Source: Candidatus Bathyarchaeota archaeon
GTDB lineage: Archaea > Thermoproteota > Bathyarchaeia > Bathyarchaeales > Bathycorpusculaceae
DNA: 64,000 nucleotides
Assembly (NCBI GenBank): GCA_963707955.1
Contig: OY970176.1
Span: 1,344,001-1,408,000 of the forward strand
Direction of reading: 5' to 3'
Below are positions 14,110 to 32,567 of the stretch, piece by piece. The notes under the pieces are model-generated. The model searched no databases, was not told the DNA's origin, and saw only the letters and a program-made list of their open reading frames with translations. The first letter of the stretch is position 1. Every line of letters begins with the position of its first letter. Both the position numbers and the translations under genes were made by a program.

Positions 14110-14119
14110 CCGTAATGGA

Positions 14120-17127: not shown

Positions 17128-17616
17128 GTGACTCAGATGTTGGACATACCGTCTATTTCAGCAATTGTTGTAGCCACAGGCGTACTGGTTGGTGTTGTTT
17201 ATTATATTCTGGATATGAGAAATCAGAGCAAAGTGAGACAAACAGACCTTGTAATGAGACTATACTCAACTTTCAATAGTCTTGAATTCCAGAAGACATG
17301 GGAAGAGGTTTTGAAAAGAGAAGCCAAGAACCTCAATGATTACGAGAAAAAGTATAGTCAGGCTGAGGTATTAGCAATTGGCATGTTCTTCGAAGGAATC
17401 GGCATTCTTCTAAAAAGAAAACTCATAGACATAGAGTTAGTTGATGACATGTTCACTATGCCTATCAAAACAACATGGGAAAAGATGAGGGATATTACAT
17501 TAGAAGCCAGAAAAGTCAGAAATGAACCAACGGGTCTTGAGTGGTTCGAATATCTCTACGATGAAATGAAGAAGAGAGAACAGAAGCTCCGACAAGGAAG
17601 TTTCAAGAATGGTTGA
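17128..17616 (+). CDS. DUF4760-like membrane-anchored protein
   Basis: N-terminal TM helix, FFEGIGILLKRKLID, WFEYLYDEMKKR. Confidence 0.7.
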   Translation: MTQMLDIPSISAIVVATGVLVGVVYYILDMRNQSKVRQTDLVMRLYSTFNSLEFQKTWEEVLKREAKNLNDYEKKYSQAEVLAIGMFFEGIGILLKRKLIDIELVDDMFTMPIKTTWEKMRDITLEARKVRNEPTGLEWFEYLYDEMKKREQKLRQGSFKNG

Positions 17617-18062
17617 CATAACAGAGATTTCGGCTATTGTTGCAGCAGCAGGTGTGTTAGTAGGTGTTATCCTTACTGTGCTAGAGCTTAGACATCTAGC
17701 CAGATCAAGACGAACAGACTCCTATTGGAGGATTATGTCCAGCTTCAACAGCAAAGAATACTTGGAAGCATTACAGAAAGTGCTTAGTCTGGAATTCGAG
17801 GACTACGATGACTTCACAAGAAAATATGGTAACTTGCTTTCAGGAAAATGAAGTTGGCGTACCATTCGCCATGGTTTGCGATCTGTATGAAACAACAGGC
17901 TTTCTTCTTCATAATGGACTACTGGAATATGACATAGCCAGCCAATTCCCAGTCATCCAAACATGGGAGAGAGTGAAGCCGATAGTAGAAGGATTAAGAA
18001 AGGAATCCACCAAATCGTATTACAAGTGGTTTGAATACCTATACAATGAGATGAAGAAATGA
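17609..18062 (+). CDS. Second DUF4760-like paralog, frameshifted near 17843
   Basis: ORFs 17609-17851 and 17808-18062 together align with the upstream paralog (ISAIVAAAGVLVGV ... WFEYLYNEMKK). Confidence 0.7.
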
Positions 18063-18085
18063 GAGCAAACACAGATTCAGCCAAG

Positions 18086-18124
18086 GATTTCAGAGGGTCT
18101 GTAGAAGTTTTTCAGCGAAGTTTC
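18086..18124 (+). repeat. Island cassette repeat, copy 4
   Basis: GATTTCAGAGGGTCTGTAGAAGTTTTTCAGCGAAGTTTC, 23 nt after the last cargo stop. Confidence 0.9.
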
Positions 18125-18211
18125 GAGATTTCAAGCTTAGAGTGATCAATCACAAACCATTTAAGATTCTTCAAAGTAGTATAGAAGTGCAAAATGGGGA
18201 GATAAAGAAGA

Positions 18212-18293
18212 ATGGACAATGAAAACAATCCTTTTGAACAGAAAGCAATCAATAATAAGTCTGACGTCCTAATCCAGCCTAGACCACGGGCCC
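18212..18293 (+). pseudogene. Putative intN fragment of the split integrase
   Basis: MDNENNPFEQKAINNKSDVLIQPRPRA reads through the right att. On circularisation it joins in frame to HMTGLRCSDYCLGKILTTLIKLKNRG at the left end. TATA-like ATTTAAG near 18159. Confidence 0.6.
18265..18293. repeat. att site, right copy (orphan tRNA 5' fragment)
   Basis: CGTCCTAATCCAGCCTAGACCACGGGCCC, identical to the left copy except for one missing A. Confidence 0.9.
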
Positions 18294-18743
18294 TTTTGGA
18301 CGGACTAGGGTACTATTGCGCTCTCTGAAAAGTTTGTACTCGTCTGTCTCCGTCACAAAGTCGAAGTCGGACTCTATTAGTTTTTTTGCTTCTGCGATCA
18401 AGAATCGCAAAGAGAATGTGGTTTTATTGTCCCAGATTCATATCAAAAATACATATGGAAAAGGTCGCAGCTAGCAAAGCGGTGAATACCATAAGCAGGG
18501 CCCGTTTATTGAGATGGCAGCACGTGACTGGAAGCCGACTATCGATGAAGCTTTAGAAAGGGAAAACCGAGCTATCAGGTTTCACAAAACGCGTTACGTA
18601 CTTTGAACACTGAGGATACTGTAGACTGTGATGGCATTGTGTTCAGAAGAGAATTGATTGTCACGCACTTGCCGCGCAATTTGCCTGCTTTCCGAGGAGC
18701 TCACAGATTAAATAGTTCTAGAGTCATTTTAGAATCTGGTGTT

Positions 18744-19814
18744 TTGTTGGATTCAAGAATTCAGCATCTCGTCGAGGTTAGCAAGCAGGTGATCTCGGAT
18801 TGTGCATTGGAAAACGGGGCTATCGTCGCGGCGAATGGGTTCAAGGAATACTTTCCGAAAGAAGCTAAAGATTACATGTACGTGTGGCCCAGAGACGCAT
18901 CGTTTGCATGTGTGAGCGCGGATATTCTGCAGATGGAGAAGATACAGGAGCGTTTCTTTGACTGGTGTATCCACCGGGCAGAAGGCTTCATGGAAGGGGG
19001 CTGTCTCTGTCAGAACTATTCTGTTAACGGTCCTAAAGCCTCAGCGAATTTTCAGCCCGACCAAACTGGTTCTCTCTTGTGGGCGATTTGGCACCACTTT
19101 AAGGGAAAACCGAAAAGAGCCTTGAAATACGAGATGCTTGTCAAACAGGCAGCTAATGGCCTGTGCAATAAGTGGAAAGAAAATCACTTCGATGATACTA
19201 CAAACGACTTGTGGGAGGAGAGGTTCACCTTCCCCGATTTAGAGGATAATTTCACTTATTCACTTGCTGCATGCATCAAAGGCTTGAGGTGCGCAAACGA
19301 AATCGTTCCGAACAAGAAGTGGATGACCACTGCGGACAGCATGTTTCAAAGACTGAAAGAACACTACAGAAACTTCTTTATTAGAAGCTATGGAAGACTG
19401 AGCGATGAAAGAATCGACGCCTCAGCGCTTGGGCTCGTGTTTCCGTTTGACATTTTTCGGGCAGATGATCCGCGGATACTTGCCACAGTCGAACAAATTG
19501 AAAAGAAGCTGGTTCTTCGCGGCGGAATACACAGGTACGAAAGCGATGAATACGACGGGTGGATGTGCGGAGGCCTGCATCGAAGGAAAGGCGCAGGCGC
19601 TTGGCCGATCCTCAACTTCTGGATGAGCATATACTACGCGAAACTTGGCAACGGCGAAAAGGCTCTTCAATACTACAACTGGCCGCTTGAAAGAACTCGA
19701 GAATTTCTTCCTGAACAAATATTCGAGAACGATCTTCAAGTTTCAGTGAGACCGTTATGCTGGAGCCACGCGATGTTCATCATCGCTTCAAAAGAACTCG
19801 GTTACATACAGTGA
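18744..19814 (+). CDS. GH15 glucoamylase-like glycoside hydrolase
   Basis: YMYVWPRD, QPDQTG, DLWEE, IDASAL, GIHRYESDEY, LPEQ, PLCWSHA. TTG start chosen from the TATA-like TTAAAT near 18709. Confidence 0.85.
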   Translation: MLDSRIQHLVEVSKQVISDCALENGAIVAANGFKEYFPKEAKDYMYVWPRDASFACVSADILQMEKIQERFFDWCIHRAEGFMEGGCLCQNYSVNGPKASANFQPDQTGSLLWAIWHHFKGKPKRALKYEMLVKQAANGLCNKWKENHFDDTTNDLWEERFTFPDLEDNFTYSLAACIKGLRCANEIVPNKKWMTTADSMFQRLKEHYRNFFIRSYGRLSDERIDASALGLVFPFDIFRADDPRILATVEQIEKKLVLRGGIHRYESDEYDGWMCGGLHRRKGAGAWPILNFWMSIYYAKLGNGEKALQYYNWPLERTREFLPEQIFENDLQVSVRPLCWSHAMFIIASKELGYIQ

Positions 19815-19881
19815 CCTGATCAAGACCGCAAAGTTTAAGCAAATTCTGCGCATTCTGTCGTATTCGACTTGGTGTTGAAGA

Positions 19882-21415
19882 TTGGTCGACGTGCTCCTCA
19901 TTTTCAAAGTCCATCAACCTTACAGGCTTAGAGAGAGTTTCTTCTGGGAAAGAAATATGTTCAAAAGAAAAACCAAGGAGGAACTCTTTGATTTCTACTT
20001 CGACAGCGCAAAGAACAAGGAAATTTTCGACCGCGCCGCCAGAAAATGCTATTTTCCAGCAAACGGCATCCTGTTTGACCTGATCGACAGGTTCAAAAAA
20101 CAAAAAAAGAAGGTCAAAGTCTCATTCAGTATCTCAGGCGTCTTCCTTGAACAATGCGAAAGTTTCAACTCTGACCTTCTAGAATCATTCAAACAGCTTA
20201 GCGAGACAGGCTGCGTCGAATTCCTGGACCAGCCATACTATCACTCCTTAGCAGGATTGTACCCGGAGAGAGATGAGTTCACAGAACAAGTCCAGATGCA
20301 TCGACAACTAATGAAGGACTTGTTCCATTCTGAACCCGTCGCCCTTGAGAACACAGAGATGATCTACAACAACGCCATCGCAAGAGTCGTGGACAAAATG
20401 GGTTACGGCGCCATGTTCACTGAGGGAGTTGATAGGATCCTAAAGGGAAGGTCGCCGAACTATGTTTACATGGCCAAAGGTCTGCGAGAGACTCAGGGTT
20501 CTCCTCAGAAACTTCAAACTCACAGACGATGTTGCATTCCGGTTTTCAGTAAGAACGTGGAGCGACTGGCCACTCACAGCTGACAAGTACGCAGACTGGC
20601 TGGCAGCGACTCAGGGACAATGCATCACCATTTTTCCAGATTATGAAACTTTCGGAGAACACCACTGGCCCGAAACCGGCATACACGACTTTCTCAAAAA
20701 TCTGCCTCTGGAAATTTTAAAGCATGAAAACCTCTCTATGTCAACCCCCTCTGAAGCGCTGAGTAAATACGGAGCCACCGGAGAGATTGACGTTGAGGAA
20801 CTCGGCGACACCGTCTCCTGGGCTGACATCAACAGAGACACGAGCGGCTGGCTGGGAAACACAATGCAATGGGCGTATTACACGACGAGCAAGGAACTGG
20901 AACCGCTCGTTAAGGAATCAAACGACAGCGAATTCCTCAGATTGTGGCGATATTTTCTGACGAGCGACCATCTTTACTACATGTTCTCCGCTGGAGGGGC
21001 ACCCGGCGAGGTACACACGTACTTCAGCCCTTACAAATCGGCGGCAGATGCCTTCGTCACTGCGCAGGGAGCCCTGCTCGACTTCGAATCAAAACTGAGG
21101 GATTATTTGGACGCTGCAAATGAACCATTCCTGTTTTACACAGGAATGGGAGAAGAGAATTTCACAGGCATCAAAGCATGGAGTCTATTAGGCTTTCTCC
21201 AGGCGATACAAAGAATCGACACGGCGCTCATCGAGTTTCACAACCGAAAAGGAGATTTTGAAAAGTGGGCAATCGCGTCACTGCGGGACGAGAAAATGGG
21301 CAAGAAACTGGAGCAGATTCGAACCTCAAAGGTGCAAGGCGAAGAACTCCGTAGAAACTTGATAGCCACGATACAATCACGGTTGACTGAACTCAAGAAG
21401 CCCGTTTTTCGTTGA
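19882..21415 (+). CDS. GH57 alpha-amylase with C-terminal DUF5752-like domain, frameshift near 20480
   Basis: VHQPYR, ENTEMIY nucleophile, PDYETFGEH, TSDHLYYM, then FLFYTG...EFHNRKGDFEKW. Split over two ORFs that join seamlessly. Confidence 0.85.
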
Positions 21416-21432
21416 AAAATGAACGTTCGAGC

Positions 21433-22907
21433 CTAGGAAAAAGCCGAACACACCTTGACGATACCGAGTTTCGTGAGGAAATATCGGAGTCGCCGCAGAT
21501 CGTCTCTGTAGCCCGCTACGTAGCCAGAGTCCAAGACTTCTGAAGCAGACCGTGCAACCTAGCGACGCTCATTCCCAATAGCTCGGCTAACTCTGCTGGC
21601 CGTTTGGCGTTCTCCCTGTCGACGACCCCGAGAATGTGCATCAACAGAAGAACCCTCAAGTCCTCAGGAAACTCTTCAGACATGAGGAACGGAAACCTAA
21701 AATGAATGGTACCGTTCCGGGGCGCCGCTATTAACGCAAGATCATAGACCTTCATCGTCTTTTCAGCGATCTTATCCCAATCATAGTCCCTAAGCACTTT
21801 TCGATACCCGTCCTCTCGAATCTTTTTAGCTACATCAGAGTTCTTGAGCACCCTTAGAATTCCCCAAGCCAGCGAATCGGAGTTGTCAACGTAGACCTTG
21901 ATGCCCGTTTTTTCATGCTGCACTATTTCGCCTAATCCTCCTGTGTCGGTAACTATGACTGGCGTTCTTGCGGCCATCGCTTCCAAGGCTGTGATGCCAA
22001 ACGGTTCGTAAAGAGATGGAAAGACAGCAGCGTCACTTGCCCTGTAGATCGAAATCAGCGTTTCTTCGTTAACAAACCCTGCGAAAAAGACGTGGCTAGC
22101 CACGCCGAAATCCCATGCTTCCTTCACTAGATAATCTTTCATTCCGCCTTCTCCGACGATCACGAAGTTCACGTTCGGCATCACAGCCAAGACTTTGGGT
22201 ACTGCGCCGATGAGGACGTGCACGCCTTTCTCGTGGACGAGTCGTCCGACGAAGCACACTATTTTTTCCCCATTCTTCGCATACAGACGCTTAATGGGCA
22301 GAGTGTTGACTCTACCGTCAAACTTGGCTACGTTTACACCATTCGGAATTACGTGAAGCCTCTTACTATGCACGTTGAATGAGGAGGAGATTTGGTCAGC
22401 CATGTAATTGCTGCAGCAGATCACTTCCCAGCTTTGACTAATTAGGTGCCGTTCAACCTCGTCTATGGTCCTTTGGTAATCATTGTGGATTCCGCCTCTT
22501 CTTCCCATCTCAGTCGCGTGGATCGTTGAAACCAACGGTTTTGAGAAGGCGTCTCGAAGCTTCACGGCCGCTTCCGTGACCAGCCAGTCGTGAGCATGAA
22601 TGATGTCTACCTCCGCGTTGGCGTCGTTGATCACGTCGATGGCCCTTTCAGCCATGGCCTGATTCATCGAAAAAACCCATCCTAGGAAGCTTGTAGAGGG
22701 AATCTTCGAGTTAAAACGATGCACCTTAACCCGGCCGATTTGCTCATCTTCAGGTGCTCCTGGAAAGGAACAAGTCACCACGTGAACAGTCACGTTTTTG
22801 CGCGCAAGCGCCATGGAAAGTTCATAGACGTGCGAGGAGATTCCGCCTATGATTCTAGGAGGAAACTCCCAGCTCAACATGAGAACAGTGAATCCGCCGG
22901 CGGCCAT
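21433..22907 (-). CDS. GT4 glycosyltransferase fused to a C-terminal winged helix (frameshift near 21538 hides the last ~34 aa)
   Basis: WEFPP..GG, HAHDW, GRLVHEKG, PSLYEPFGITALEAM. The shifted frame continues VLDSGYVAGYRDDLRRLRYFLTKLGIVKVCSAFS* to TAG at 21433-21435. Confidence 0.85.
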
Positions 22908-22996
22908 GAACTATCACATCAAGATACGCTAACATGTATTTAGGGTCTATTGCACAAAAGTTATTTGGTCATTTATCTTCTTGAAAGAAGCAGAGA

Positions 22997-23260
22997 ATGA
23001 TAATGTTGAACGAGTATGATCTTCCCCTGTCAGAACGGCTCCTGATCACCCTGCACAACCTCTGTGCCACCAACGGCGACATGGCTAGAAAGAGCGACGA
23101 GCTAGTTCAGATTCTTCAAGCCGGCACGGACGAAGTCAACCAGAACCTAAACAGGCATATCTCTGACGGATACGTCGCCGCTTTCACGGATAATGAAGGA
23201 AACAGAAGATTCTACTTGACAAACACTGGGATAATAAGAGTCTGCTCACTTTTCAGCTAA
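22997..23260 (+). CDS. Small winged-helix protein
   Basis: ERLLITLH...DELVQIL...GYV...FYLTNTG wHTH pattern, homologous to the C-terminus of the divergent GT4. Confidence 0.75.
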   Translation: MIMLNEYDLPLSERLLITLHNLCATNGDMARKSDELVQILQAGTDEVNQNLNRHISDGYVAAFTDNEGNRRFYLTNTGIIRVCSLFS

Positions 23261-23274
23261 GGAAGTCAACAGTT

Positions 23275-23898
23275 TTGCGTGTGATAATCTTCACGTGGGA
23301 ATTTCCGCCTAGAATCGTCGGTCCGCTCGCGTATTACGTGAACAAGCTCGCAGTCGAATTGGCAAAGAAAAGCGTTGACACGTACGTGGTTACGTATAAC
23401 AGCTCTTGGGTTGGCTTTCACGCAGGCGCAGACGGCATAAAAGCCTACAGAATCTCAGACACGGTGAGACCTCAGATAAACGTCCTGACGTGGATGCTTA
23501 GCCTCAACCAGGAAGCTGAACGGGTCGCCTCAGACATCTACTACTCGATGAAACACGAAGTAAACCTGATAGACGTGCACGACTGGCACTTCGTACCAGC
23601 CGCGGTCACTTTGAAAAGGGCGCTGGGAATTCCTTTTGTTTTTTCAGTGGACAGCATTGAACCTCACAGGTCTCGAAACAGCAACGCGCCCTTAAGCTTG
23701 TCTATAACAAGCATCGAGTCGCTAGGAGTTTCCGAAGCCACGAAGATCATAGTCAAATCACAATGGATGAAGCAGGAACTGAAACACTATTACAATGCGC
23801 CAGACGACGTGACAGAGCTCGTCTTGCCTGAGTCTGAGGCATGGATAGAAGGAATCCTTGCGATTTATGAAAAGGGTCTGAGGGTGCTTGCCAGCTGA
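23275..23898 (+). CDS. GT4 N-terminal-domain-only protein
   Basis: WEFPPRIVG, DVHDW. Lacks GR..EKG and EPFG...E but keeps the terminal W..I..IY helix. Confidence 0.8.
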   Translation: MRVIIFTWEFPPRIVGPLAYYVNKLAVELAKKSVDTYVVTYNSSWVGFHAGADGIKAYRISDTVRPQINVLTWMLSLNQEAERVASDIYYSMKHEVNLIDVHDWHFVPAAVTLKRALGIPFVFSVDSIEPHRSRNSNAPLSLSITSIESLGVSEATKIIVKSQWMKQELKHYYNAPDDVTELVLPESEAWIEGILAIYEKGLRVLAS

Positions 23899-23915
23899 GC
23901 AGGCAACTTCGAGTT

Positions 23916-25103
23916 GTGATGCTTTCATGGGAATTTCCCCCGAGGACGGTAGGTGGGATTGCAGCCCATTTGTACTATTTATCTCGAGAACTCGTGAAGT
24001 TGGGTGTGGACACTTACATCGTGACATGTGATTTTCCTGGAGCGCCAGAACGTGAGGTGGTGAATGGCGCACATGTGGTGAGAGTAGATTCGTACAAGAC
24101 TCCTTCTCCAGACTTTGCGACTTGGGATTCTCTGATGAACGTGAACATGCAGAAGGAAACCGCGACTCTAATCAGCGATCTCGGTCGCCAAGTTGACATC
24201 ATTCACGCTCATGATTGGCTAGTGGCGAACGCGGCCTTGGGCCTCAAGCAGATCTTCCGAATCCCACTAGTAGCAACGATACATTCGACAGAAATCGGCA
24301 GGAGAAACGGGCTTCACACAGACTACGAAAGGATGATCCATCAAACCGAAAACTGGCTCGCTCACGAATCTTGGCGGATCATATGCTGCAGTCAATACAT
24401 GGCACAACATGTCATGTGGGCCTACGGGCTTCCGCAAGACAGGGTGATGGTTATTCCAAACGGAGTCGACGCCAGCGTGTACGAAAAGGAGTTTGACAGA
24501 ACCGAGTTCAGAAAAAGATTCGCCTTTCCAGAAGAGAAGATCGTGCTTTATGTCGGTCGGCTAGTATATGAAAAAGGCGTGCAGACTCTAGTCAGTGCTA
24601 TCCCGAAGATCCTGTCGAGAGTGAACGCAAAATTCGTAGTTGTCGGTGACGGAGGCATGAAGGACCACCTGATGCGGCAAGTAGCAAACATGCGTCTTAC
24701 GCACAGGATCATGTTCACAGGTTTTCTGGATGAAGAGAGCCTCAGAAAGCTGTATCAAATCGCTGACGTCTGCGTCGTGCCGTCTCTCTATGAACCGTTT
24801 GGCATCACAACCTTGGAAGCGATGGCCGCAAAGACGCCGTTGGTCGTCTCGAACACGGGAGGTCTCTCAGAAATTGTTGAGCATGATAAGACAGGAACAA
24901 AAGTCTATGCGGGCAACGCAGATTCGGTCGCTTGGGGAATAATAAGAATTTTACTTGATCCCGGATACGCAGACTGGATCAAACTCAACGCCTATAAGAA
25001 GGCCTTAGAAGTCTACGACTGGACCAGGATAGCAAAGGAAACGAAGGAATTCTACGAGCGGGTACTCAAAGAATACGATAGCGGCTCTTGGAAACCTACA
25101 TGA
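23916..25103 (+). CDS. GT4 glycosyltransferase (glycogen/alpha-glucan synthase-like)
   Basis: All GT4 motifs are present. The frame is open a few codons upstream (LSRQLRV), so the start may be CTG at 23895. Confidence 0.92.
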   Translation: MMLSWEFPPRTVGGIAAHLYYLSRELVKLGVDTYIVTCDFPGAPEREVVNGAHVVRVDSYKTPSPDFATWDSLMNVNMQKETATLISDLGRQVDIIHAHDWLVANAALGLKQIFRIPLVATIHSTEIGRRNGLHTDYERMIHQTENWLAHESWRIICCSQYMAQHVMWAYGLPQDRVMVIPNGVDASVYEKEFDRTEFRKRFAFPEEKIVLYVGRLVYEKGVQTLVSAIPKILSRVNAKFVVVGDGGMKDHLMRQVANMRLTHRIMFTGFLDEESLRKLYQIADVCVVPSLYEPFGITTLEAMAAKTPLVVSNTGGLSEIVEHDKTGTKVYAGNADSVAWGIIRILLDPGYADWIKLNAYKKALEVYDWTRIAKETKEFYERVLKEYDSGSWKPT

Positions 25104-26340
25104 TTCCGCAGAGCCTTTGGGCTTCATTGATTCTTTCCCTGGCTTTGAGAGAGCAGACGACTGACCGATCAAGCCAGTCTTTACTGCCCCACCAGAAGTC
25201 ATCGCTTGCTTCTGCCATGAGAAGCCAACGCCAAGCCTGGTCTAGCGCACTCTTTGCATCTGAAGAGCAGTTCATTCTTGCGCCTGCCATCTTTTCTTCA
25301 GCTTCACGGACATACCTGCTGGCCTCCAGAACACGCGCCCAAGTCCTCTGCCTCTCTTCGCCTCCGGTCCATTTCAGAAACCTGCCATCATCAAACGTGT
25401 CTGGAACATTCCAGCTTCCATCCTCAACCATCACCGTGTCCTTCGGCGGATGTTCAGCAAGGTACTCGCTTATGGTTGTCAATCTGATGAACTGAAAGTC
25501 AGGATCCTTCTTTAGAAGATAGAGAAGAGGCTCGAAAAACCATCCCCAAAAGCCTGCATTCTCTCCAGAGTGGCGGAACCACCCGTTTTCACCGTCAGTA
25601 GCTACGGTCAGCAGAAACTCCCCGTCGTTGTTTGGCACGATTTCTCTTTCAATTTCGTGTCTGAGCCAAACGGGGTTGTAGCCGCTCTGCTGCGCGATGC
25701 TGATCATTCTGTCGCGGGGGATCACAATTATGCGCTGTCCATCATACTCCGCAAAATGAGGCTTGTACAAGAGCTGAAACAAGTTCTCATTCTTGTTGGC
25801 GTTGACTATGTGAGGGCCATCGACTATCGTCCATTTTATGCCATTCTTTGCAAGCGCTGGAATCACCTTTGGGCTGAAGGCAAGCTCCGGCAGCCAAAAC
25901 CCCTCAGGTCTTGCTCCGAAAGTCTGCTCAAAGAGGCTCAAATGCGCCTCGATCTGCCTCAGCTGGTCATCCTCAGGTATAAGCGGAAATATGGGATGAA
26001 AATACCCGCAACCAGTGAATTCTGAGTTTCCGAGCCGCTTCGTCTCCTTGTACCTATCCCATATTCCGTTCAACCTTTGATCGAAACCAACACTTGCCAA
26101 CTCATTAATCTGCTCAATCAAACTGCCTGTAAAGTTCAGAGTAACCCTTGCGTTCTCATCCTTCTTGAGTGCCTCTGAAGGGTACGTGTAAGGGTGAAGC
26201 GTTTGGCCAAAAACGTCGCGAGCCAATTCTGACTCATACGTTGGGCCATTCAAGTTGTAACGTGGCTGATGCATGTGCAAGACCAGAGCAAAATACAAAG
26301 GTTGCCTATCCATTCTGCCATCGCCCAGATTCACTTGCAT
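25096..26340 (-). CDS. GH57 family glycoside hydrolase
   Basis: LHMHQP, YFHPIFPLI, GFWLPEL, ATDGENG, AEASDDFWW. Confidence 0.88.
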   Translation of the reverse strand: MQVNLGDGRMDRQPLYFALVLHMHQPRYNLNGPTYESELARDVFGQTLHPYTYPSEALKKDENARVTLNFTGSLIEQINELASVGFDQRLNGIWDRYKETKRLGNSEFTGCGYFHPIFPLIPEDDQLRQIEAHLSLFEQTFGARPEGFWLPELAFSPKVIPALAKNGIKWTIVDGPHIVNANKNENLFQLLYKPHFAEYDGQRIIVIPRDRMISIAQQSGYNPVWLRHEIEREIVPNNDGEFLLTVATDGENGWFRHSGENAGFWGWFFEPLLYLLKKDPDFQFIRLTTISEYLAEHPPKDTVMVEDGSWNVPDTFDDGRFLKWTGGEERQRTWARVLEASRYVREAEEKMAGARMNCSSDAKSALDQAWRWLLMAEASDDFWWGSKDWLDRSVVCSLKARERINEAQRLCGIM

Positions 26341-26370
26341 CTCGAAAGATAAAGTTATTATGGTGAATGC

Positions 26371-26961
26371 TTGCTATCTGAACTGAAGGTACCCTCTGTG
26401 CCCGAATTCTCACAAGACGAGATTACCGTTTTAAAAAAGATAGACCCCTTAGGAAAAGCGACACCTGAAAGCTTAGCTCGCATATTAGGCGAACCCTACA
26501 CCGTTCAGCATCTTTCCGCCTACTTGAAATCGTTGGAAGAGAAAACGCTTCTGAGAAGGACACAAGAAAATCGGTCAGTTTACGAATTAACCCCGCTCGG
26601 ACTCATAGCTATAGGAGCGCTACCTGAAAGCGCGAAGAAAATCTATTCACCATTGCCCCGTGAAAAATGCTTCTACTTCTACACCGGCGTCGGACCTGAC
26701 AAGTTCACGAAAATGTCGGCCTGTAGCCTCTTTGACTTCAAGGAAAAAACAAGAAAAGTCGACTCAAGATCGCTGGAATTTCACCTCCAGAGAGGCGACA
26801 TAGCAAAATGGTTCAATGAAGTCGTCGGCGAAGCAGAGCTGGCCAAAGAGTTTGACCGTTTGAAAACAGCAAACCTCTACGGCGAAGTGCTCAGGACCCG
26901 CATAACAAGGCTGATAGACGCCCGCATCGAAACACTGACTTACAGCAGAACCCGCGTCTGA
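26371..26961 (+). CDS. Winged-helix plus DUF5752-like protein (putative regulator)
   Basis: N-terminal wHTH ending YELTPLG; C-terminal FYFYTG...EFHLQRGDIAKW homologous to the GH57 tail domain. Confidence 0.75.
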   Translation: MLSELKVPSVPEFSQDEITVLKKIDPLGKATPESLARILGEPYTVQHLSAYLKSLEEKTLLRRTQENRSVYELTPLGLIAIGALPESAKKIYSPLPREKCFYFYTGVGPDKFTKMSACSLFDFKEKTRKVDSRSLEFHLQRGDIAKWFNEVVGEAELAKEFDRLKTANLYGEVLRTRITRLIDARIETLTYSRTRV

Positions 26962-26976
26962 TCCTCAAGTCTATCG

Positions 26977-27621
26977 ATGCCAGTGGGCTCTCCGATGCAC
27001 ATTCTGCTGCTCAGCTGGGAATATCCACCTAAGCGCCTAGGGAACATCGCTGACCACGTGAGCACCCTAGCCCATGAACTTGTCAAACGAGGACATGACA
27101 TCGAACTCGTAGTTCTGGACGATCTGAAGCAAGGGTTCGAAGACGTTGCTGGTGTCCACGTCCACAGGGTCGCCAACCCCATCAGAACTCACCCTATGGC
27201 AAGCATCCTCAGTTATTCCGTCACCGCCTCGCTGCAGATGGAAGCCGAATCCTCAAACATTATCTACTTCTATAAACAACAAGGGAAGAACATCGATTTG
27301 ATACACGCCCACGAGTGGCTCACGACATACCCAGCCATCGTTCTCAAACACGCCTTCCACACGCCTTTTGTGGTGACCTTTCACTCGATCGAGGGGCATC
27401 GCTGCCATGACAATTTCAACGCTACCAGCCTAGGGATCAAAGAAATCGAAGACATGAGCATATGGGAATCCAACTCTGTGATCACAAACACGGACTGGCT
27501 GAAAAAAGAGATCTTGAGATATTATGGCAAAGGCCACGATGAGAAAATAAAAGTGATCTGGCCTATTGGCTCAAACTGGGTTGACGAAATCGTTTCTGCG
27601 TACAGTATGGCTGCGCCATGA
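26977..27621 (+). CDS. GT4 N-terminal-domain-only protein
   Basis: WEYPP, HAHEW, no nucleotide-sugar domain, ends with WVDEIVSAY helix. Confidence 0.8.
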   Translation: MPVGSPMHILLLSWEYPPKRLGNIADHVSTLAHELVKRGHDIELVVLDDLKQGFEDVAGVHVHRVANPIRTHPMASILSYSVTASLQMEAESSNIIYFYKQQGKNIDLIHAHEWLTTYPAIVLKHAFHTPFVVTFHSIEGHRCHDNFNATSLGIKEIEDMSIWESNSVITNTDWLKKEILRYYGKGHDEKIKVIWPIGSNWVDEIVSAYSMAAP

Positions 27622-28827
27622 GTGATGCGGATGCGGGTTCTTCACCTGTCATGGGAATTTCCTCCTAGAATAATAGGAGGCGTAGCCTCACACGTCTTTG
27701 ATCTTTCCAGAGCCCTTGCTAGGAGGGGCTTAGAGGTACACGTTTTGACGTGCAACTTTCCAGGCGCGAAGAGGTTCGAGAACATTGACGGAGTCAACGT
27801 CAACAGATTTGAAGCCTACGCCACGGCAGACTCCTTCTTAGCATGGAGTCTTCGAATGCAGAAGAACATGGAGATCAGCGGCAGCGACCTGATCAGCCGA
27901 AGTGGAGCCTTCGACGTTATCCATGCGCATGATTGGCTTTCCGGCGTCGCCGGCATCGGACTAAAACACCTATACAGAAAACCTCTGATCACAACGATGC
28001 ACAGCACGGAATATGGCAGAAGAACAGGGATCCACAATGACCTTCAAGCGGCGATCCATGAAATTGAGGGCTGGATCGTAGGTGAATCTTGGCGAGTGAT
28101 CACCTGTTCATACTACATGCGCAACCACGTCGCCTGGTGTTTCCACACGTCTGAAAACAGAATAAACGTTATACCTAACGGCGTCGACATCACAAAATTC
28201 AGCTTCAACTTCAACTACTGGGAAGTCAGGAATCGATTCGCACACGAATCTGAAAGAATCCTGCTGTTCGTAGGGAGGTTCGTCCCTGAGAAGGGCTTAG
28301 ACACGCTCATCGAAGCGCTACCCATCGTCCTTGCAAACGGCTTAAATGTCAAACTAATCGTGGTCGGCGAAGGGCCCCAAAAAGAGGCCTATCAGGGAAT
28401 GGTTAACGATTACGACCTGCGCCAGAAAGTATTCTTCGCAGGGCACATTGACGATTGGACACTAAGAACCCTTTACCGGGTGGCAGACGTGACCGTGGTC
28501 CCCTCGAAATTTGAGCCTTTTGGTATAGTGGCACTGGAAGCAATGGCCGCCCATTGTCCATTAGTGACGACGACCACGGGCGGGCTGAACGAAATTGTGG
28601 ACGACGGCGGCACAGGCTTGAAAGTTCCAGTTGATGATCCCAACGCCTTAGCATGGGCAATCCTCAGGGTTGTGAGAGACGTCGGATTCAAAAACTACGT
28701 GGTAGAAAACGCCTATCGGAAGTGCTTATGGAACTACAACTGGGACAAAATCGCAGAATGGACAAACGGCGTCTACGATGCAGTTCTGAATGAGTACGCC
28801 AAAAGCACATGGAAACCATCTGGCTGA
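27622..28827 (+). CDS. GT4 glycosyltransferase
   Basis: WEFPPRIIGG, HAHDW, GRFVPEKG, PSKFEPFGIVALEAM. Confidence 0.92.
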   Translation: MMRMRVLHLSWEFPPRIIGGVASHVFDLSRALARRGLEVHVLTCNFPGAKRFENIDGVNVNRFEAYATADSFLAWSLRMQKNMEISGSDLISRSGAFDVIHAHDWLSGVAGIGLKHLYRKPLITTMHSTEYGRRTGIHNDLQAAIHEIEGWIVGESWRVITCSYYMRNHVAWCFHTSENRINVIPNGVDITKFSFNFNYWEVRNRFAHESERILLFVGRFVPEKGLDTLIEALPIVLANGLNVKLIVVGEGPQKEAYQGMVNDYDLRQKVFFAGHIDDWTLRTLYRVADVTVVPSKFEPFGIVALEAMAAHCPLVTTTTGGLNEIVDDGGTGLKVPVDDPNALAWAILRVVRDVGFKNYVVENAYRKCLWNYNWDKIAEWTNGVYDAVLNEYAKSTWKPSG

Positions 28828-28909
28828 ACAAACAACGCGCTGTTCCAGCAGACTCAGCATTCCTCTTTCCACTCACGCTATCTTTGCAATTTTGCCGCCA
28901 GCACCTCTT

Positions 28910-30133
28910 TTATGAAGAAAACTCTTCCATTTGTCGATAAGCAAAATCTATCATTCTTTCTCCCTGGTCGAACCAGAAATCGCTGTTCCAATATACGTAG
29001 CAACTCGTCTCAGCCATGAGGAGCGCTCTCAGCGCCTCTTCGCTTCTTGAGGTTTTTGTTTGCTCGTCATGAAACCTCCGACTCAACTCTTCTATTTTCC
29101 TCTTCATCTCCAACCGTCTATCTCCACAACCCCACCGTGAATGGTCCCCCAGCCATGAGCCTCCGACACCCTGCAGCTCGATCTCGCTGTCTGGAGGATA
29201 TTCCCTCAGATATTGAGTAACCGTCATTGAGGAAACCTCTTCATCACTCTTCTCTCTGAAAAACGGAATGAACGTATCGGAGAAGAAATGGTTCAGCATG
29301 ACGTTCCCGTTCTCGCCATCGGACGCGGGAACAATAAGCGCAGGGCACTTTCTGCCGGTTTTTTCTGAAATACGAGCGGCCTCCATGCATTTGTTATACA
29401 CTCCATTTGCGTCACATCCTGCCTGTTGATCAATAAAATCGTACTTAGGCCTGAAGATCACCGTCATCTCTTCGCCGTCGGCTCTGAGAACATGTGGTTG
29501 GCAGAAAATCTCGACGTGCTTTTCGTACGTGATTGTCTTCGCCTTCACAGTCTCGATCGGCAGAATCAGCCATTCATATCCTTTGTTTTTCAACAGCCTC
29601 ATCAGTGCACTCAGTTTCTCAGCGGCTGGAACGCCCATTTCTGGTAGCCAGAACCCTTTGACCCTCATGGTCGATTCCGGACCGAAAAGCGAACAGAACG
29701 CCTTTCTCCAGAAATCAACCTGGCTTTCCCAGTCTTCTTCAGGAGTCACAGGAAAATAGCAGTGAGCGTACGCTGTTCCAGAGAACTCTATCGAGTCAGG
29801 AAACTCATTAAGAACCTGCTTCCATAGCCCGATTATGTCTCCTATCACATTACCGTCGACATCTTCTTGGGAATGCAGTTCACTCATTCTGTCGAGGTTC
29901 TCAAGAAGTATCCCAGAGTAGTCGACTGCAACTCGCGGATGTTTTCCTTCACGTTCAAGATTTCTGACCCACAAAGCAGGGTTTCTATAAGCCCGAGCCA
30001 TGAGTCGCCCGTCCCACCGATCTCTCGAGTCGTCAGAACTGAGCATCCTTTCCAAGTTGCCTATGATCCTATTACTGTCTGTGAACACCATCGGCTGATG
30101 CATGTGTAACCAGGGCAAATACACTGCTTTCAT
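28910..30133 (-). CDS. GH57 family glycoside hydrolase
   Basis: LHMHQP, GFWLPEMG, ASDGENG, AETSCYVYW. Confidence 0.85.
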   Translation of the reverse strand: MKAVYLPWLHMHQPMVFTDSNRIIGNLERMLSSDDSRDRWDGRLMARAYRNPALWVRNLEREGKHPRVAVDYSGILLENLDRMSELHSQEDVDGNVIGDIIGLWKQVLNEFPDSIEFSGTAYAHCYFPVTPEEDWESQVDFWRKAFCSLFGPESTMRVKGFWLPEMGVPAAEKLSALMRLLKNKGYEWLILPIETVKAKTITYEKHVEIFCQPHVLRADGEEMTVIFRPKYDFIDQQAGCDANGVYNKCMEAARISEKTGRKCPALIVPASDGENGNVMLNHFFSDTFIPFFREKSDEEVSSMTVTQYLREYPPDSEIELQGVGGSWLGDHSRWGCGDRRLEMKRKIEELSRRFHDEQTKTSRSEEALRALLMAETSCYVYWNSDFWFDQGERMIDFAYRQMEEFSS

Positions 30134-30837
30134 ATCTAGGCGTAGACATCAAGAACCTAAAATAAAATGCTTCGGAAACAAATCCAGCAAACCCCATCAG
30201 AAACAGAAAAGAAGAAACGTGCGGGAGATGCCTCCACCCGAGAACAAGTCTAGCTTAGACGGGCCAGTTGGATGGATTTTGCCCCTTTAAATGCGCTTCC
30301 TGAACAGTTTGCTCACATCTATATCTGTCACGTAATAGGAGCTCGACTGCAACGTTTGAATGAGAAGCTGGGGATCCCTCCCCTCCTAGGTTTCAATATA
30401 CCATGGATATTTGGATCCAAATATGCTCGCCTCCAACGCCTTTTGAGTTTGATCTGCTCGGCCAGAGACCGCTTTCTAATCGAGCGCGCGTCGGAGGTCT
30501 GGTGCTGCAACCTGTTGTGCCCTAGACTTACTATTATGATTTGTACAAGACCGCACCGAGCACAGATGGGAACGGACAACACGCGGGCATTGACGGCAAC
30601 CGGCTTGAATAGCAGATTCTCATCATTGTTTTCGGAATAGCAACGATTGTATTGAGCACTATGTCCTATGTCAGGCGGAGAAAGAGGGAATGCGCACGGG
30701 CCATAGAAGAATCTGGCCAAGAGCGCATTCAAGACTCTTTTCTCTTCAGGGATGCGCCTCAAACTTTGTGAAAGGCTGCTCAGAATACTACTGTACAGCA
30801 AGGTCTTGTTCAGGAATGCAGGGGCGAGATTCAGGTA

Positions 30838-31503
30838 TTATGGTAGGTCGGCGTTGTTGTCGTATCCATTGCTTTCCCAATAGCCTCGAAAGCTGGTGTC
30901 GTTGGATACTTCTATCTTGGTTAGCCACTTTATCCACTTGTACCCGTACTTGCCTTCAGCGGCTAGTTGAAACGGGAAGCCTTCCGTTGCCGGGAGGGTT
31001 ACGTTGTTTACTTTGTAAGCTATCATTATGTTGTCGTCCACTATGTAGGAAAGCGGCAGACTGGTCGTGTATCCGTCTTGAGCATAGAATATTACGACTT
31101 GGGCATTCTGTTCGTACCCGGCTTCCTCAAGGAGGTCCTTCACGCGTACACCCTGCCACAAAGCCGTGACTGCCCAGCCCGTCACGCAGACGAGCGTGAC
31201 AACTTTCTCGTAGCTTGTGTGATTGTTAATAATGTCGTCGTACGTGTAGACGGTTTGGTTTTGAACAAGCCCTGTGACAACAAGCTGGTAAGTGCTTACG
31301 TTTATGTATTGTATATCATTTATCGCTTCGAGTTGAAAATCATTTATCGACCCGAGTTCCTGCCCATCGTACACCCTGATTTCCCCCGGATAGGAGCCTG
31401 TTGGACCGCTGGTCAGGCTGGTCCACACCAAATTTCCCACGAATGCGGCAGCGACCACTATTATCGCGAGAATGGCCAACAGGAGGATTCTCCTTGCATT
31501 CAT
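30838..31503 (-). CDS. Membrane-anchored molybdopterin-dependent oxidoreductase (sulfite-oxidase fold)
   Basis: N-terminal TM/signal, TLVCVTGW, WQGV, DGYTTSLP, GFPFQL, YGYKWIKWL, GYWE. Confidence 0.88.
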   Translation of the reverse strand: MNARRILLLAILAIIVVAAAFVGNLVWTSLTSGPTGSYPGEIRVYDGQELGSINDFQLEAINDIQYINVSTYQLVVTGLVQNQTVYTYDDIINNHTSYEKVVTLVCVTGWAVTALWQGVRVKDLLEEAGYEQNAQVVIFYAQDGYTTSLPLSYIVDDNIMIAYKVNNVTLPATEGFPFQLAAEGKYGYKWIKWLTKIEVSNDTSFRGYWESNGYDNNADLP

Positions 31504-31673
31504 CGTTTCTTCGCTTCAAGGATAATATGACTTACGTCATACCTATATGCATTTTGCCCGTGTACCTCGCACCAACGGAAACGACTGATCGAGCTCGGTC
31601 AAAAATGCTTTTAATGTGTGCAACGCATAGTCTGAGACAAACTGCCCAGCCCAAAGAAATCGCAAGTGAAAAC

Positions 31674-32567
31674 ATGAAGCTGAACCGCAGGCTACAAAGC
31701 AGTTACGGAAAACGCGTTCTTCTCGTTGTCATACTAGTCTTGGTAGTCACGAGCGCAGTTTCTTTTTCACCTGCGAGCGCACGGGCAGCGGCTACCGCCA
31801 TCAATCTTCCTCCCATGACCCTCACTCTCGTCGCCGCAAATGGCACCCAACTCGTCTTGACCTCTAACGATATCGGAAACCTCCCCTCCTACACGGCTTA
31901 CGGAGGGTATGAAACCCAAGTCGGATTCATCAGGGCTCTGGGAAACTATACGGGGGTCCCGTTGATAACCATCTGCAATCTAGTTGGAGGAATAGCTAAC
32001 GGCAGCAGCCTCAAAATAACAGCCTCTGACAACTACACCAAGACCCTCAGTTATGATGAAGTGAACGGCAATTTCACAACATTCGACACTGTGACAGGTC
32101 AACAAGTGCCTCACAATCAATCTCTCACCCCGATTCTGGCATACTACTTTAACGGTGCAAACCTTTCCTCAGACGAAGGCTCCCTACTCCTTGCGATCGT
32201 TGGACCAGAACAACTGGCCACGGAGGCCCCATACTGGGTGAAATTTGTGGTGAAAATGGAAATACTCAGTGCGCCCGCGCCAGCAGAGTTTCCATGGTTG
32301 CTACTGATAATACCTGTTGTCATGTTCGTGGCCATAATCGCAGCCGCAATTTACAGGAAAAGAGGTTCTAAACGGTCGGCAGAGCAAGTGCCGCAAATCT
32401 TAAAGAATGGATCATCACACATTTCAACATCTCAGAATACCAGATACCGCGCCAGAATGAGCAGAGCCGTGACAAAAAGGCCCAGCGCGATAAGAACAAC
32501 GTTCAACAGCCTTGCTTCTTCCACTCCCCACCGTGTCAAAGCGGTTTTCAATCCGATCAGCACGTGA
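31674..32567 (+). CDS. Secreted surface protein with molybdopterin-oxidoreductase-like domain and AEFP-TM sorting tail
   Basis: Signal peptide, YTGVPL, ITASDNY, ILAYYFNG, WVKFVVKMEI, then PAEFP, TM and basic residues. The 3' extension overlaps the next gene, so the true end is uncertain. Confidence 0.65.
   Translation: MKLNRRLQSSYGKRVLLVVILVLVVTSAVSFSPASARAAATAINLPPMTLTLVAANGTQLVLTSNDIGNLPSYTAYGGYETQVGFIRALGNYTGVPLITICNLVGGIANGSSLKITASDNYTKTLSYDEVNGNFTTFDTVTGQQVPHNQSLTPILAYYFNGANLSSDEGSLLLAIVGPEQLATEAPYWVKFVVKMEILSAPAPAEFPWLLLIIPVVMFVAIIAAAIYRKRGSKRSAEQVPQILKNGSSHISTSQNTRYRARMSRAVTKRPSAIRTTFNSLASSTPHRVKAVFNPIST

Follow-up and report, generated by a model that had tools for sequence, protein, structure and literature searches.

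What is made by a locus that repeatedly sets a complete glycosyltransferase beside half of another one, and what is the half for? Such a locus occurs in a sediment-dwelling Bathyarchaeia archaeon whose genome contains three paralogous cassettes of this kind, two in the 64,000-nucleotide stretch of DNA analysed here (the window) and the third 75 kb upstream. Our preferred answer, to which we assign a probability of about 0.55, is that it is a gene set for the synthesis and remodelling of an alpha-glucan (glycogen-type), present in three paralogous copies, in which the half-glycosyltransferase, hGT, serves the full-length GT4 as a bound, non-catalytic subunit. Open reading frame and Pfam/NCBIfam checks of the window confirmed gene content and order at 18603-30133 (Table 1), and all the genes named in an earlier note on this DNA were found where it had placed them, in the same order. 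None of the 11 locus proteins matches the PADLOC defence models (GT4-conflict) at E <= 1e-5.

Table 1. Features of the locus, with window coordinates and the basis of each assignment.
Feature	Position	Strand	Basis and remarks
GH15, catalytic domain only	18603-19814	+	Pfam PF00723; start probably near 18639-18654
GH57 with C-terminal DUF5752 (GH57-DUF5752)	19882-21415	+	Pfam; two frames in assembly
GT4w, full GT4 with C-terminal w87-type winged helix	21433/21516-22907	-	Pfam N and C domains
Intergenic DNA	22908-22996		
w87, 87-aa stand-alone winged-helix protein	22997-23260	+	Predicted fold
hGT_A, N-domain-only GT4, 207 aa	23275-23898	+	Pfam Glyco_transf_4 N-domain alone
GT4_A, full-length GT4/GT5-like retaining glycosyltransferase, candidate glucan synthase	23916-25103	+	Pfam N and C domains
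GH57_A, closest to 4-alpha-glucanotransferase	25096-26340	-	PF03065
Intergenic DNA	26341-26397		
wDUF, winged helix and one OrfY/DUF5752 repeat	26371-26961	+	Pfam DUF5752 and predicted fold
hGT_B, N-domain-only GT4, 214-aa ORF (homologues 208 aa)	26977-27621	+	N-domain Pfam matches alone
GT4_B, full-length GT4	27622-28827	+	Pfam N and C domains; begins right at hGT_B stop codon
GH57_B, divergent GH57	28910-30133	-	PF03065, residues 59-191 only

Two genes are broken as assembled. An extra T at 20481 splits GH57-DUF5752 into two overlapping frames, a single 1-nt indel relative to the intact 510-aa gene of the same-genus genome G010, and this T is missing from the contigs of all three public runs that cover the site, which are otherwise identical. 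Likewise, the loss of one base after 21536 truncates the GT4w frame at 21516 and shortens its winged helix; all three public runs that cover this site have the additional G, again in otherwise identical contigs, and the G010 orthologue is 491 aa long with a w87-like end. Both genes are intact in G010, and it is the assembly that introduced the two frameshifts into the window.

The earlier note had described the region from w87 to GH57_A (unit A) and that from wDUF to GH57_B (unit B) as a duplicated unit of winged-helix gene, half-GT, GT4 and convergent GH57. Between the two, the GT4s share 46% identity (E 1e-135), the hGTs 30% (E 5e-35) and the GH57s 25% (E 3e-28), matches by which the repeated gene order is judged to be paralogy and not chance. 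The winged-helix members, w87 and the N terminus of wDUF, give no BLAST match to one another and have only the fold in common. Furthermore, hGT_A is 54% identical to the hGT of the third cassette in the same genome, and by the trees the units are old paralogues and no product of a recent local duplication.

The unit that is conserved among relatives is also smaller than the one described. It runs from a small winged-helix gene through hGT (~208 aa) to a full GT4, an order that is widely kept in Bathyarchaeia and to that extent bears out the proposed module when gene neighbourhoods are compared. A winged-helix gene lies immediately 5' of hGT in 26 of 30 hGT genes and a GT4 immediately 3' in 29 of 30; the WEFPP motif of the GT4 starts 18-55 nt past the hGT stop in 29/30, the GT4 gene often overlapping that stop and otherwise beginning within a few bases of it. 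By contrast, the convergent GH57 falls outside the conserved unit. A GH57 gene adjoins the cassette in variable orientation among relatives, GH57_A belongs with unit B, adjoining wDUF-hGT_B-GT4_B divergently in all five unit-B genomes (G000, G010, G031, G118 and G221), and unit A has GH57-DUF5752, which lies upstream, as its conserved GH57 partner. At the level of orthologues, GH57_B is matched in a single one of 201 class genomes, G000, and in addition in G010, a distribution that confines it to the host genus.

The three complete GT4s (GT4w, GT4_A and GT4_B) possess both GT-B domains (Glyco_transf_4/5 and Glycos_transf_1 in Pfam). Across 66 aligned GT4_B-type and cassette GT4 sequences, G19, G20, H24, the HxHDW residues H101, H103, D104 and W105, and E298 and E306 are invariant, the last pair being what we take to be the E-x7-E motif of C-domain glutamates. 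GT4_B has about 80 clusters among the matches listed, at 61-94% identity, and the dN/dS of GT4_A against G010 is 0.07 (0.07-0.19 for the ten locus genes so compared). The curated synthase models are not reached: TIGR02149 (Corynebacterium-type), the best NCBIfam model for the locus GT4s, scores them at 169-173 bits (GT4_A 172.7) below a cut-off of 302.4, and TIGR02095 at 104-113 bits below 328.45. No canonical GlgA above cut-off occurs in the whole genome, where the best TIGR02095 match is the GT4 of the third cassette (89 bits). The best solved relatives of GT4_A are 6kih, a sucrose-phosphate-synthase-like protein (E 7e-31), 6tvp, the maltose-1-phosphate synthase GlgM (E 9e-27), MshA and Pyrococcus abyssi GlgA.

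Against PF03065 (cut-off 21.2 bits), the two halves of GH57-DUF5752, which carry profile positions 2-190 and 193-290 in the two overlapping frames, score 184 and 89.7 bits, GH57_A 115.5 and GH57_B 42.4. A profile of 18 GH57-DUF5752 orthologues matches the GH57 structure 1k1w (E 1.5e-4), and its candidate catalytic residues E159 and D253, assigned by motif only, are invariant in the 18 sequences. GH57_A matches the same structure at E 4e-16 and has Glu and Asp at the positions aligned to E123 and D214, presumably the catalytic residues of the Thermococcus litoralis 4-alpha-glucanotransferase. Sequence searches gave no solved relative for GH57_B, which contains WLPE and SDGENG strings like those of GH57_A. 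No branching-enzyme C-domain (BE_C, PF09210) turned up in the genome, and the scores with the curated branching-enzyme models NF041566 and NF041133 are 17-32 bits, where the cut-offs lie at 920-1000. The GH15 gene encodes the catalytic (alpha/alpha)6 domain (PF00723, 61.7 bits, cut-off 22) and lacks the full-length architecture with its N-terminal domain, matching TIGR01577 with 156.7 bits against 820.7 over profile positions 271-609 of 616 only. This short form is kept in G010 (386 aa, 89% identity, dN/dS 0.19) and in G118 and G047, the latter two having it at the equivalent position.

In relatives, the cassette has as neighbours a GDE debranching enzyme, phosphoglucomutase, an NDP-sugar transferase (NTP_transferase), GH15 and GalT-like genes, together with PFK, FBPase, GAPDH and PGK. 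The alpha-glucan role put forward in the earlier note fits this company, and the debranching enzyme, phosphoglucomutase and NDP-sugar transferase in particular suggest glycogen-type metabolism. Given that the leading solved relatives of the GT4s are a sucrose-phosphate-synthase-like protein and GlgM, the product may nevertheless not be a polymer. The GT4s might instead form a small glucoside or a sugar phosphate, for example the maltose-1-phosphate that GlgM makes, a compound akin to sucrose phosphate, or a compatible solute, leaving GH57, GH15 and GDE to act on another substrate or on a downstream product. Such a product would accord with 6kih and 6tvp ranking ahead of the Pyrococcus GlgA, with the best NCBIfam model, under its cut-off, being of the Corynebacterium type, and with the presence in the genome of numerous other GT4 paralogues of this kind. 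We consider it unlikely in view of the glucan-related genes near the cassette in relatives (GH57 included), of the lack of a higher-scoring GlgA candidate in the genome and of the catalytic pair retained by GH57_A, which is that of an enzyme requiring glucan chains.

With an alpha-glucan as the favoured product, the question becomes what hGT contributes to it. The hGTs carry the GT4 N-domain alone (hGT_B aligns to GT4 residues 1-185) and so lie outside the two-domain GT-B synthase class. They retain the first Gly of the GG loop, W114, S137, E139, R142 and E158, and lack the second Gly of that loop. By hand count, a frame of ~210 aa is present in 28 of 41 relatives, 24 of the 25 same-family genomes among them; in a class-wide sample, hGT occurs in 43 of 48 same-family genomes and in about 62 of 301 genomes overall (a hand count of the rows listed). 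Order-level relatives have a 387-aa GT4 without any hGT, and hGT is therefore not universally required. The single natural hGT-GT4 fusion, in G004, which is included in the count of relatives, arises from a 1-nt indel near the 3' end of hGT and may be an assembly error.

In the tree, 24 hGT rows, hGT_A among them, form a single clade (SH-aLRT 100) whose sister group (97) consists of the N-domains of 20 GT4s from hGT-bearing genomes, 17 of them partnered with an hGT and three of them winged-helix fusions. The GT4s of genomes that lack hGT branch outside this grouping, and the sub-clades of hGT and partner GT4 run in parallel, indicating co-divergence. It is conceivable that hGT is not a synthase subunit at all and works by itself, binding glucan or a primer, braking GT4 by competition or serving GH57 as a partner. 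It has kept most of the acceptor-side residues that are conserved in the GT4 N-domain, it evolves faster than GT4 (the A and B copies are 30% identical for hGT and 46% for GT4), and close gene linkage speaks of common function rather than of contact. What makes this doubtful is that the tight and often overlapping junction seen in 29 of 30 cases, combined with parallel trees, is the usual picture for subunits produced at a fixed ratio, and we continue to favour hGT as a subunit that binds GT4.

The remaining proteins of the cassette raise a separate issue, that of regulation. w87 has no Pfam or NCBIfam match; its AlphaFold model (pLDDT 91.0) matches the winged helices of TubR, AspA (rmsd 1.5) and MarR, and its profile gathers 207 representative clusters, mostly of 75-90 aa, with a highly conserved C-terminal helix and a dN/dS of 0.15 against G010. 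The same domain ends GT4w (29% identity to w87, E 5e-14), in a fusion that G118 and G047 share; such fusions span three genera, and among the representative clusters they occur in three (P0351, P0357 and P0461). wDUF, whose homologues (119 clusters) begin ~9 codons downstream of the ORF start, giving 187 aa, is modelled with a pLDDT of 90.4. Its residues 13-82 resemble the SSo2273/MarR winged helices (Z 10-12.4, rmsd 1.2-2.3), with no curated HTH family reached (TrmB 17.2 bits, cut-off 25.6), and the top match of residues 89-188 is OrfY (4CSO; VIA-align Z 12.5, rmsd 2.3, 98 residues). DUF5752 (PF19027, cut-off 23) is detected in GH57-DUF5752 at 32.4 bits and in wDUF at 23.9 bits, and the profile of 18 GH57-DUF5752 orthologues also matches 4CSO (E 2.2e-5). 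In OrfY, a protein of solved structure, DUF5752 makes up one repeat; in the locus it is joined to GH57 in one type of module and to a winged helix in the other. Each protein here has a single repeat (profile positions 2-108 of 208), and in G045 and G056 the GH57 has two. A literature search found no paper naming DUF5752.

Any association with DNA is suggested by the predicted winged-helix folds only. A conserved operator was sought at the cassettes and none was found; an element common to the two divergent intergenic regions, AAAGTTATT, may be no more than a promoter. Alternatively, the winged-helix and OrfY domains might be protein-protein adaptors that assemble GH57, GT4 and hGT rather than DNA-binding regulators, the reading closest to the earlier idea of a multi-subunit, possibly DNA-associated system. 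It would make sense of the three kinds of fusion (GT4 to winged helix, GH57 to DUF5752 and winged helix to DUF5752), of single OrfY repeats that may need pairing, since OrfY itself has two per chain, and of the strong conservation of the C-terminal helix of w87. We think it improbable all the same, for the models are close to classical DNA-binding winged helices and small winged-helix genes that head operons are usually autoregulators. That the half-GTs are what is left of GT4 genes decaying after duplication, as the loss of a whole C-domain might imply, is refuted and deserves almost no credence: their dN/dS (0.157 for hGT_A, 0.098 for hGT_B) is not pseudogene-like and lies within the range of the other locus genes, as the earlier picture of functional halves would have it, hGT_B has 99 stand-alone homologues of uniform length at 51-94% identity, the one hGT clade is old and spread over many families, and it conserves invariant residues of its own.

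The alpha-glucan reading can thus be put as a mechanism. Each copy combines the same five domains, namely a GH57 glucan remodeller, an OrfY/DUF5752 repeat, a winged helix, hGT and a full GT4, the last of which would be the catalytic NDP-glucose-dependent synthase of a probable glucan. hGT would have arisen once, as a copy of the acceptor-side N-domain of GT4. Having lost the C-domain, where the nucleotide sugar binds, and one GG-loop glycine, it would have become a non-catalytic subunit that presumably binds GT4 and either holds the glucan primer or activates the enzyme. The winged-helix and OrfY proteins would be the cassette's own regulators, putatively through DNA binding. Domain content, conservation, purifying selection, co-divergence and genomic context are the observed basis from which we infer the binding of hGT to GT4, the binding of DNA and the glucan product. 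A bolder and rather unlikely form of the proposal has a storage glucan made in Bathyarchaeia by a new heteromeric synthase with hGT as its obligate primer-holding or initiating subunit, and has the OrfY repeat of GH57 pairing with that of the winged-helix regulator. If this were true, hGT would be functionally comparable to glycogenin or to the plant SS5/PTST helpers, and the state of the GH57 remodelling enzyme would, through the pairing of OrfY repeats, directly set transcription of the synthase cassette.

Archaeal and bacterial glycogen clusters (GlgA, GH57, GH15 and debranching enzyme) likewise place a retaining GT-B synthase-like enzyme beside GH57 and GH15, and in relatives GDE, phosphoglucomutase and an NDP-sugar transferase are further neighbours. 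Here, by contrast, the candidates are GT4-like and under the GlgA cut-offs, each is paired with an N-domain-only copy, GH57 has an OrfY repeat in place of the branching-enzyme C-domain, and the set is present three times. In split GT-B enzymes of the Alg13/Alg14 type, one GT-B half is also a polypeptide of its own beside its partner, and the two halves complete each other. hGT is similarly a separately encoded half next to its partner, but the gene that follows each hGT encodes a complete GT4 (N plus C), which makes hGT an extra N-domain and rules out a split enzyme. A catalytically dead or truncated glycosyltransferase-like protein helps a catalytic one in streptococcal GtfA/GtfB and in Arabidopsis STARCH SYNTHASE 5 (SS5), which reportedly lacks the C-terminal GT1 subdomain; these belong to other kingdoms and families. 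The full GT4, its conserved half copy and a small DNA-binding-type protein may together be an undescribed multi-part synthase.

Two proteins of Thermoproteus tenax also bear comparison. OrfY shares its fold and an R-x-D-x-x-x-W motif with the C-terminal domains of wDUF and GH57-DUF5752; it has two repeats per chain and neither an enzyme nor a winged-helix domain, whereas one repeat is fused here to GH57 or to a winged helix. TPSP, according to one report (PMC3634074), requires a separate, co-transcribed glycosyltransferase for synthase activity and forms a complex with it, which makes it an archaeal sugar synthase with a glycosyltransferase-type partner. By that account TPSP pairs with a complete glycosyltransferase and yields trehalose-6-phosphate/trehalose, as opposed to a half-GT that would bind its partner and a likely glucan here.

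Lastly, the earlier note had placed the attachment site of an island just outside the locus, and this agrees with the genome comparison: window positions 11087-18626 are absent from G010, and the island is flanked by direct repeats of a tRNA-Arg end at 11068-11101 and 18278-18311.

The core of interest at this locus is a widespread but unstudied cassette of three genes, encoding a winged helix, an N-domain-only GT4 (half-GT, hGT) and a full GT4, among which domains of the OrfY type have been shuffled. OrfY is a solved protein of Thermoproteus tenax (4CSO) that consists of two repeats, and DUF5752 corresponds to one such repeat. ORF listing and family scans of the window, which sits in a closed 2.35-Mb contig, recovered every gene named in the earlier note (see table). 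A defence system was ruled out, as PADLOC models matched none of 11 locus proteins, and a search of 10500-31000 for structured RNAs and riboswitches returned a tRNA only.

Genes of the alpha-glucan locus (window coordinates; w87, 87-aa winged-helix protein; wDUF, winged helix plus DUF5752; GT4w, GT4-winged-helix fusion)
Gene	Position	Strand	Source
GH15, catalytic domain only	18603-19814	+	ORF listing, family scans
GH57 with C-terminal DUF5752	19882-21415	+	ORF listing, family scans
Full GT4 with C-terminal extension (GT4w)	to 22907	-	ORF listing, family scans
w87, 87 aa, without family match	22997-23260	+	ORF listing, family scans
hGT_A, N-domain-only GT4	23275-23898	+	ORF listing, family scans
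GT4_A, full GT4	23916-25103	+	ORF listing, family scans
GH57_A	25096-26340	-	ORF listing, family scans
wDUF, 196 aa, weak TrmB-type helix-turn-helix + DUF5752	26371-26961	+	family scans
hGT_B, second N-domain-only GT4	26977-27621	+	ORF listing, family scans
GT4_B, full GT4	27622-28827	+	ORF listing, family scans
GH57_B, divergent	28910-30133	-	ORF listing, family scans

Conservation was mapped with 30 hGT genes from 25 genomes. The WE(F/Y)PP motif of a full GT4 begins 18-55 nt past the hGT stop in 29 of the 30, so that the GT4 start abuts or overlaps this stop; only in G047 does another gene separate the two. Directly upstream of the hGT lies a winged-helix gene in 26 cases (w87 type, 21; wDUF type, 5), the remainder being the hGTs of G038, G045 and G056 and the second hGT of G188. 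Winged helix, half-GT and GT4 therefore follow one another in a conserved order, as had been proposed, but the convergent GH57 with which the earlier note closed each unit is not a constant member, and the unit boundaries were drawn wrongly. GH57_A is the divergent neighbour of wDUF-hGT_B-GT4_B (unit B) in all five genomes that carry this unit, namely the window's own (G000), G010 of the same genus, G031, G118 and G221. In G118 and G221, a homocitrate-synthase-like gene is convergent to GT4_B in place of GH57_B, and among 201 class genomes an orthologue-level match to GH57_B was found only in G000, to which G010 is to be added; the other two matches in the class search are GH57_A orthologues at 30% identity. 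The conserved GH57 of unit A (w87-hGT_A-GT4_A) is instead the upstream GH57-DUF5752. It follows that there are two module types, one consisting of GH57-DUF5752, w87, hGT and GT4, and the other of GH57, a divergent winged helix-DUF5752, hGT and GT4. The same five domains are present in both, with DUF5752 carried on the GH57 in the first and on the winged helix in the second.

The arrangement of short GH15, GH57-DUF5752, GT4w on the opposite strand, w87, hGT and GT4 recurs in G010, G118 and G047. A free DUF5752 protein of 119-131 aa is found upstream of w87, immediately so in G253 and G183, two genes away in G146. The 640-aa GH57 proteins of G045 and G056 (L047 6603-8525 and L051 3761-5686, respectively) contain two DUF5752 repeats, and the hGT there has no preceding w87.

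The proposal that units A and B are duplicates is borne out enzyme by enzyme, with pairwise identities of 30% for the hGTs (E 5e-35), 46% for the GT4s (E 1e-135) and 25% for the GH57s (E 3e-28); only a common fold links w87 to the N-terminal half of wDUF. In a GT4 tree of 32 rows, GT4_A, GT4_B and GT4w each fall outside the clade to which most relatives contribute their one cassette GT4; the duplication is old. A third cassette (GH57-DUF5752, w87, hGT, GT4; locus L021) lies 75 kb upstream of the window, its products sharing 62%, 54%, 54% and about 60% identity with GH57-DUF5752, w87, hGT_A and GT4_A, respectively.

Of 41 close relatives, 28 have stand-alone hGT frames (one of them, in G004, fused), including 24 of the 25 that belong to the same family, for which the tally in an even sample of the class is 43 of 48. 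Across the class, at least about 62 of 301 genomes have a stand-alone hGT frame among the matches listed (frames of 300 aa or less, E <= 4e-40). Five families of the same order have a GT4 of ~388 aa followed by a w87-like gene, and the hGT is absent. Stand-alone homologues number 99 for hGT_B and 119 for wDUF, and the w87 profile takes in 207 representative clusters. The 629-aa hGT-GT4 ORF of G004 was considered as a natural fusion; it arises from a 1-nt indel near the end of the hGT and was not counted as evidence.

The half-GTs are real, old and constrained. Their dN/dS values relative to G010 (0.157 for hGT_A and 0.098 for hGT_B) lie within the range of 0.07-0.19 spanned by ten locus genes compared. 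A quick IQ-TREE analysis of 24 hGTs and 28 GT4 N-domains, which excluded six of the 30 hGTs as well as those GT4s whose start was uncertain, placed all hGTs in a single clade (SH-aLRT 100). This is sister (97) to the N-domains of 20 GT4s from hGT-bearing genomes (17 partnered and three winged-helix fusions), and GT4s from hGT-less genomes branch outside the combined group. Furthermore, the hGT and GT4 sub-clades correspond (B; G045/G056; G253/G247; G047; A; common type). By this topology, the hGT arose once, from the N-domain of the neighbouring GT4, and has co-diverged with that enzyme. The hGT aligns to GT4 residues 1-185 and retains W-E-x-P-P, the first loop glycine, H-x-H-(D/E)-W and S-x-E, together with one Arg and one Glu that are also invariant in GT4; the second loop glycine is replaced, and the whole nucleotide-sugar domain is absent. 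In full GT4s, including GT4w, the GG loop and the two C-domain glutamates are preserved. A match of the last ~25 hGT residues to the GT4 C-terminal helix was dropped (hhalign probability 1.5%, E 0.034).

Two genes of the locus look defective as assembled. Relative to G010, one extra T at 20481 splits GH57-DUF5752 into two frames, and one base missing after 21536 removes the last ~28 residues of the GT4 fusion. The extra T is absent from the contigs of all three public runs that cover the site (X1, X2 and X3, which otherwise match the window without difference), and all three covering the second site (X1, X2 and X4) carry an extra G after 21536; the sample from which the window derives may be among these runs, which suits them to judging assembly error but does not make them independent evidence that the sequence occurs elsewhere. 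X4 shows further differences from the window and is therefore a relative, not the same strain. Near-identical DNA is found in freshwater-sediment or peat habitats. Comparison with G010 and the public-run contigs rules out pseudogenes, and both defects are assembly errors. Single-base indels in this closed genome can thus mimic pseudogenes, and further apparent frameshifts in it may be of the same kind. With the base restored, the C-terminal domain of the GT4 aligns to w87 (29% identity, E 5e-14), and both end in a GI(I/V)KVC..(F)S string, which identifies the restored gene as a GT4-winged-helix fusion.

The earlier suggestion that the locus begins just outside an integrated element also held. 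Apart from lacking 11087-18626, G010 is colinear with the window at about 91% nucleotide identity. The missing 7.5-kb segment is of low G+C content (0.36-0.41, compared with about 0.49), adjoins a tRNA-Arg and has a 34-nt direct repeat of the tRNA end at both borders. Its genes code for Lar-like, CAP-like, dockerin-bearing and beta-helix (NosD-like) proteins, and a sequence of ~46 nt occurs in it four times, after successive genes (14111, 15811, 16977 and 18077). Truncation of the GH15 by the insertion was ruled out because G010, which is without the island, carries the same short form of 386 aa. Directly past GH57_B, a 2.2-kb stretch (30232-32410) that is absent from G010 contains a molybdopterin-oxidoreductase-like ORF (30838-31503, minus strand) and a 388-aa ORF without family match.

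In the predicted model of wDUF (pLDDT 90.4), the N-terminal winged helix matches SSo2273 and MarR-type regulators (Z 10-12.4), and the top match of the C-terminal domain is T. tenax OrfY (Z 12.5, rmsd 2.3 over 98 residues); 4CSO was absent among the matches listed by Foldseek for the whole model. A profile of five wDUF sequences reached OrfY at an E value of only 0.065, and one of 18 GH57-DUF5752 proteins matched both OrfY repeats (E 2.2e-5). The structural match and the deeper profile together make the link to OrfY clear. The structure of OrfY has been solved with its function unexplained, and a literature search found no paper mentioning DUF5752; the cassette would give this fold a first functional context. 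The model of w87 (pLDDT 91.0) is a minimal winged helix resembling TubR, AspA and MarR. Cysteines in its HNLC and C-terminal KVC strings are both present in 13 cassette-type sequences (alignment A4) and both replaced (G, L) in four distant w87-like proteins that follow hGT-less GT4s; the two may be in contact or act as a redox pair. Inspection of intergenic DNA for operators yielded one shared element only: in the divergent GT4w/w87 (22940-22960) and GH57_A/wDUF (26350-26370) regions, AAAGTTATT is followed by (T/A)(G/T)GGT, and the corresponding site in G118 reads AAAATTATT. The AAAGTTATT element probably serves as a promoter element and may be an operator common to both regions.

What the locus makes is best approached through its neighbours. 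In relatives, the cassette is accompanied by genes for a glycogen debranching enzyme (GDE_N/GDE_C), phosphoglucomutase, NDP-sugar transferase (once fused to phosphoglucomutase), a GalT-like protein and GH15, as well as PFK, FBPase, GAPDH and PGK. No GlgA above the curated cut-off was found in the genome, the best TIGR02095 match being the GT4 of the third-copy cassette, and in an alignment of GH57_A to the 4-alpha-glucanotransferase of Thermococcus litoralis, the catalytic E123 and D214 of the latter are matched by Glu and Asp. On these grounds, we interpret the locus as the gene set with which these archaea synthesize and remodel a glucan of the glycogen type. A search of the genome for a GH57 branching-enzyme C-domain found none. 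A small-molecule product is possible, because the cassette GT4s score below every GlgA cut-off and, among solved structures, are closest to a sucrose-phosphate-synthase-like protein and to GlgM, a maltose-1-phosphate synthase.

For the glycogen-type reading, a mechanism can be proposed in which GT4 would be the catalytic subunit and hGT a non-catalytic partner that binds both GT4 and the acceptor glucan, as suggested by their linkage, stop/start overlap, co-divergence and retained acceptor-side residues. From their folds and the three types of fusion, w87 and wDUF would be the regulators of the cassette and the OrfY repeat a sensing or pairing domain; all of these contacts are inferred. The TPSP of T. 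tenax, which requires a separate glycosyltransferase protein (PMC3634074), offers a precedent for the proposed hGT-GT4 partnership. Among titles and abstract openings on Bathyarchaeia glycogen synthase and non-catalytic GT-B proteins, none concerned this cassette; the relevant passages of PMC9534799 mention only counts of GH57, GT4 and GT5. Bathyarchaeia are among the most abundant archaea of sediments and almost entirely uncultured, and the way in which they store carbon matters for how they persist and for the turnover of carbon in sediments. The cassette is a concrete set of three genes open to expression and assay, and a natural case of a glycosyltransferase with a conserved partner derived from its own N-domain; should enzyme and partner bind each other, they would represent a new means of building or regulating a glucan synthase.

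The association of OrfY repeats with GT4 genes extends beyond the cassette, as seen from pairs of the type found at L041 5016-7052, about 1-3 kb upstream of the window start, where a divergent 417-aa GlgA_Coryne-like GT4 (minus strand) accompanies a 187-aa winged-helix-DUF5752-like protein (plus strand). The same pairing occurs in G026, where the genes are adjacent, and in G069; in G030, they are about 3.4 kb apart. A fourth sugar locus of the genome, L040 (G000:C1:1556001-1574000), encodes a 416-aa GT4, a 140-aa DUF5752 protein, a 650-aa protein with a GT4 C-domain, and a 671-aa protein with a weak match to mannosylglycerate hydrolase and a match to GH57.
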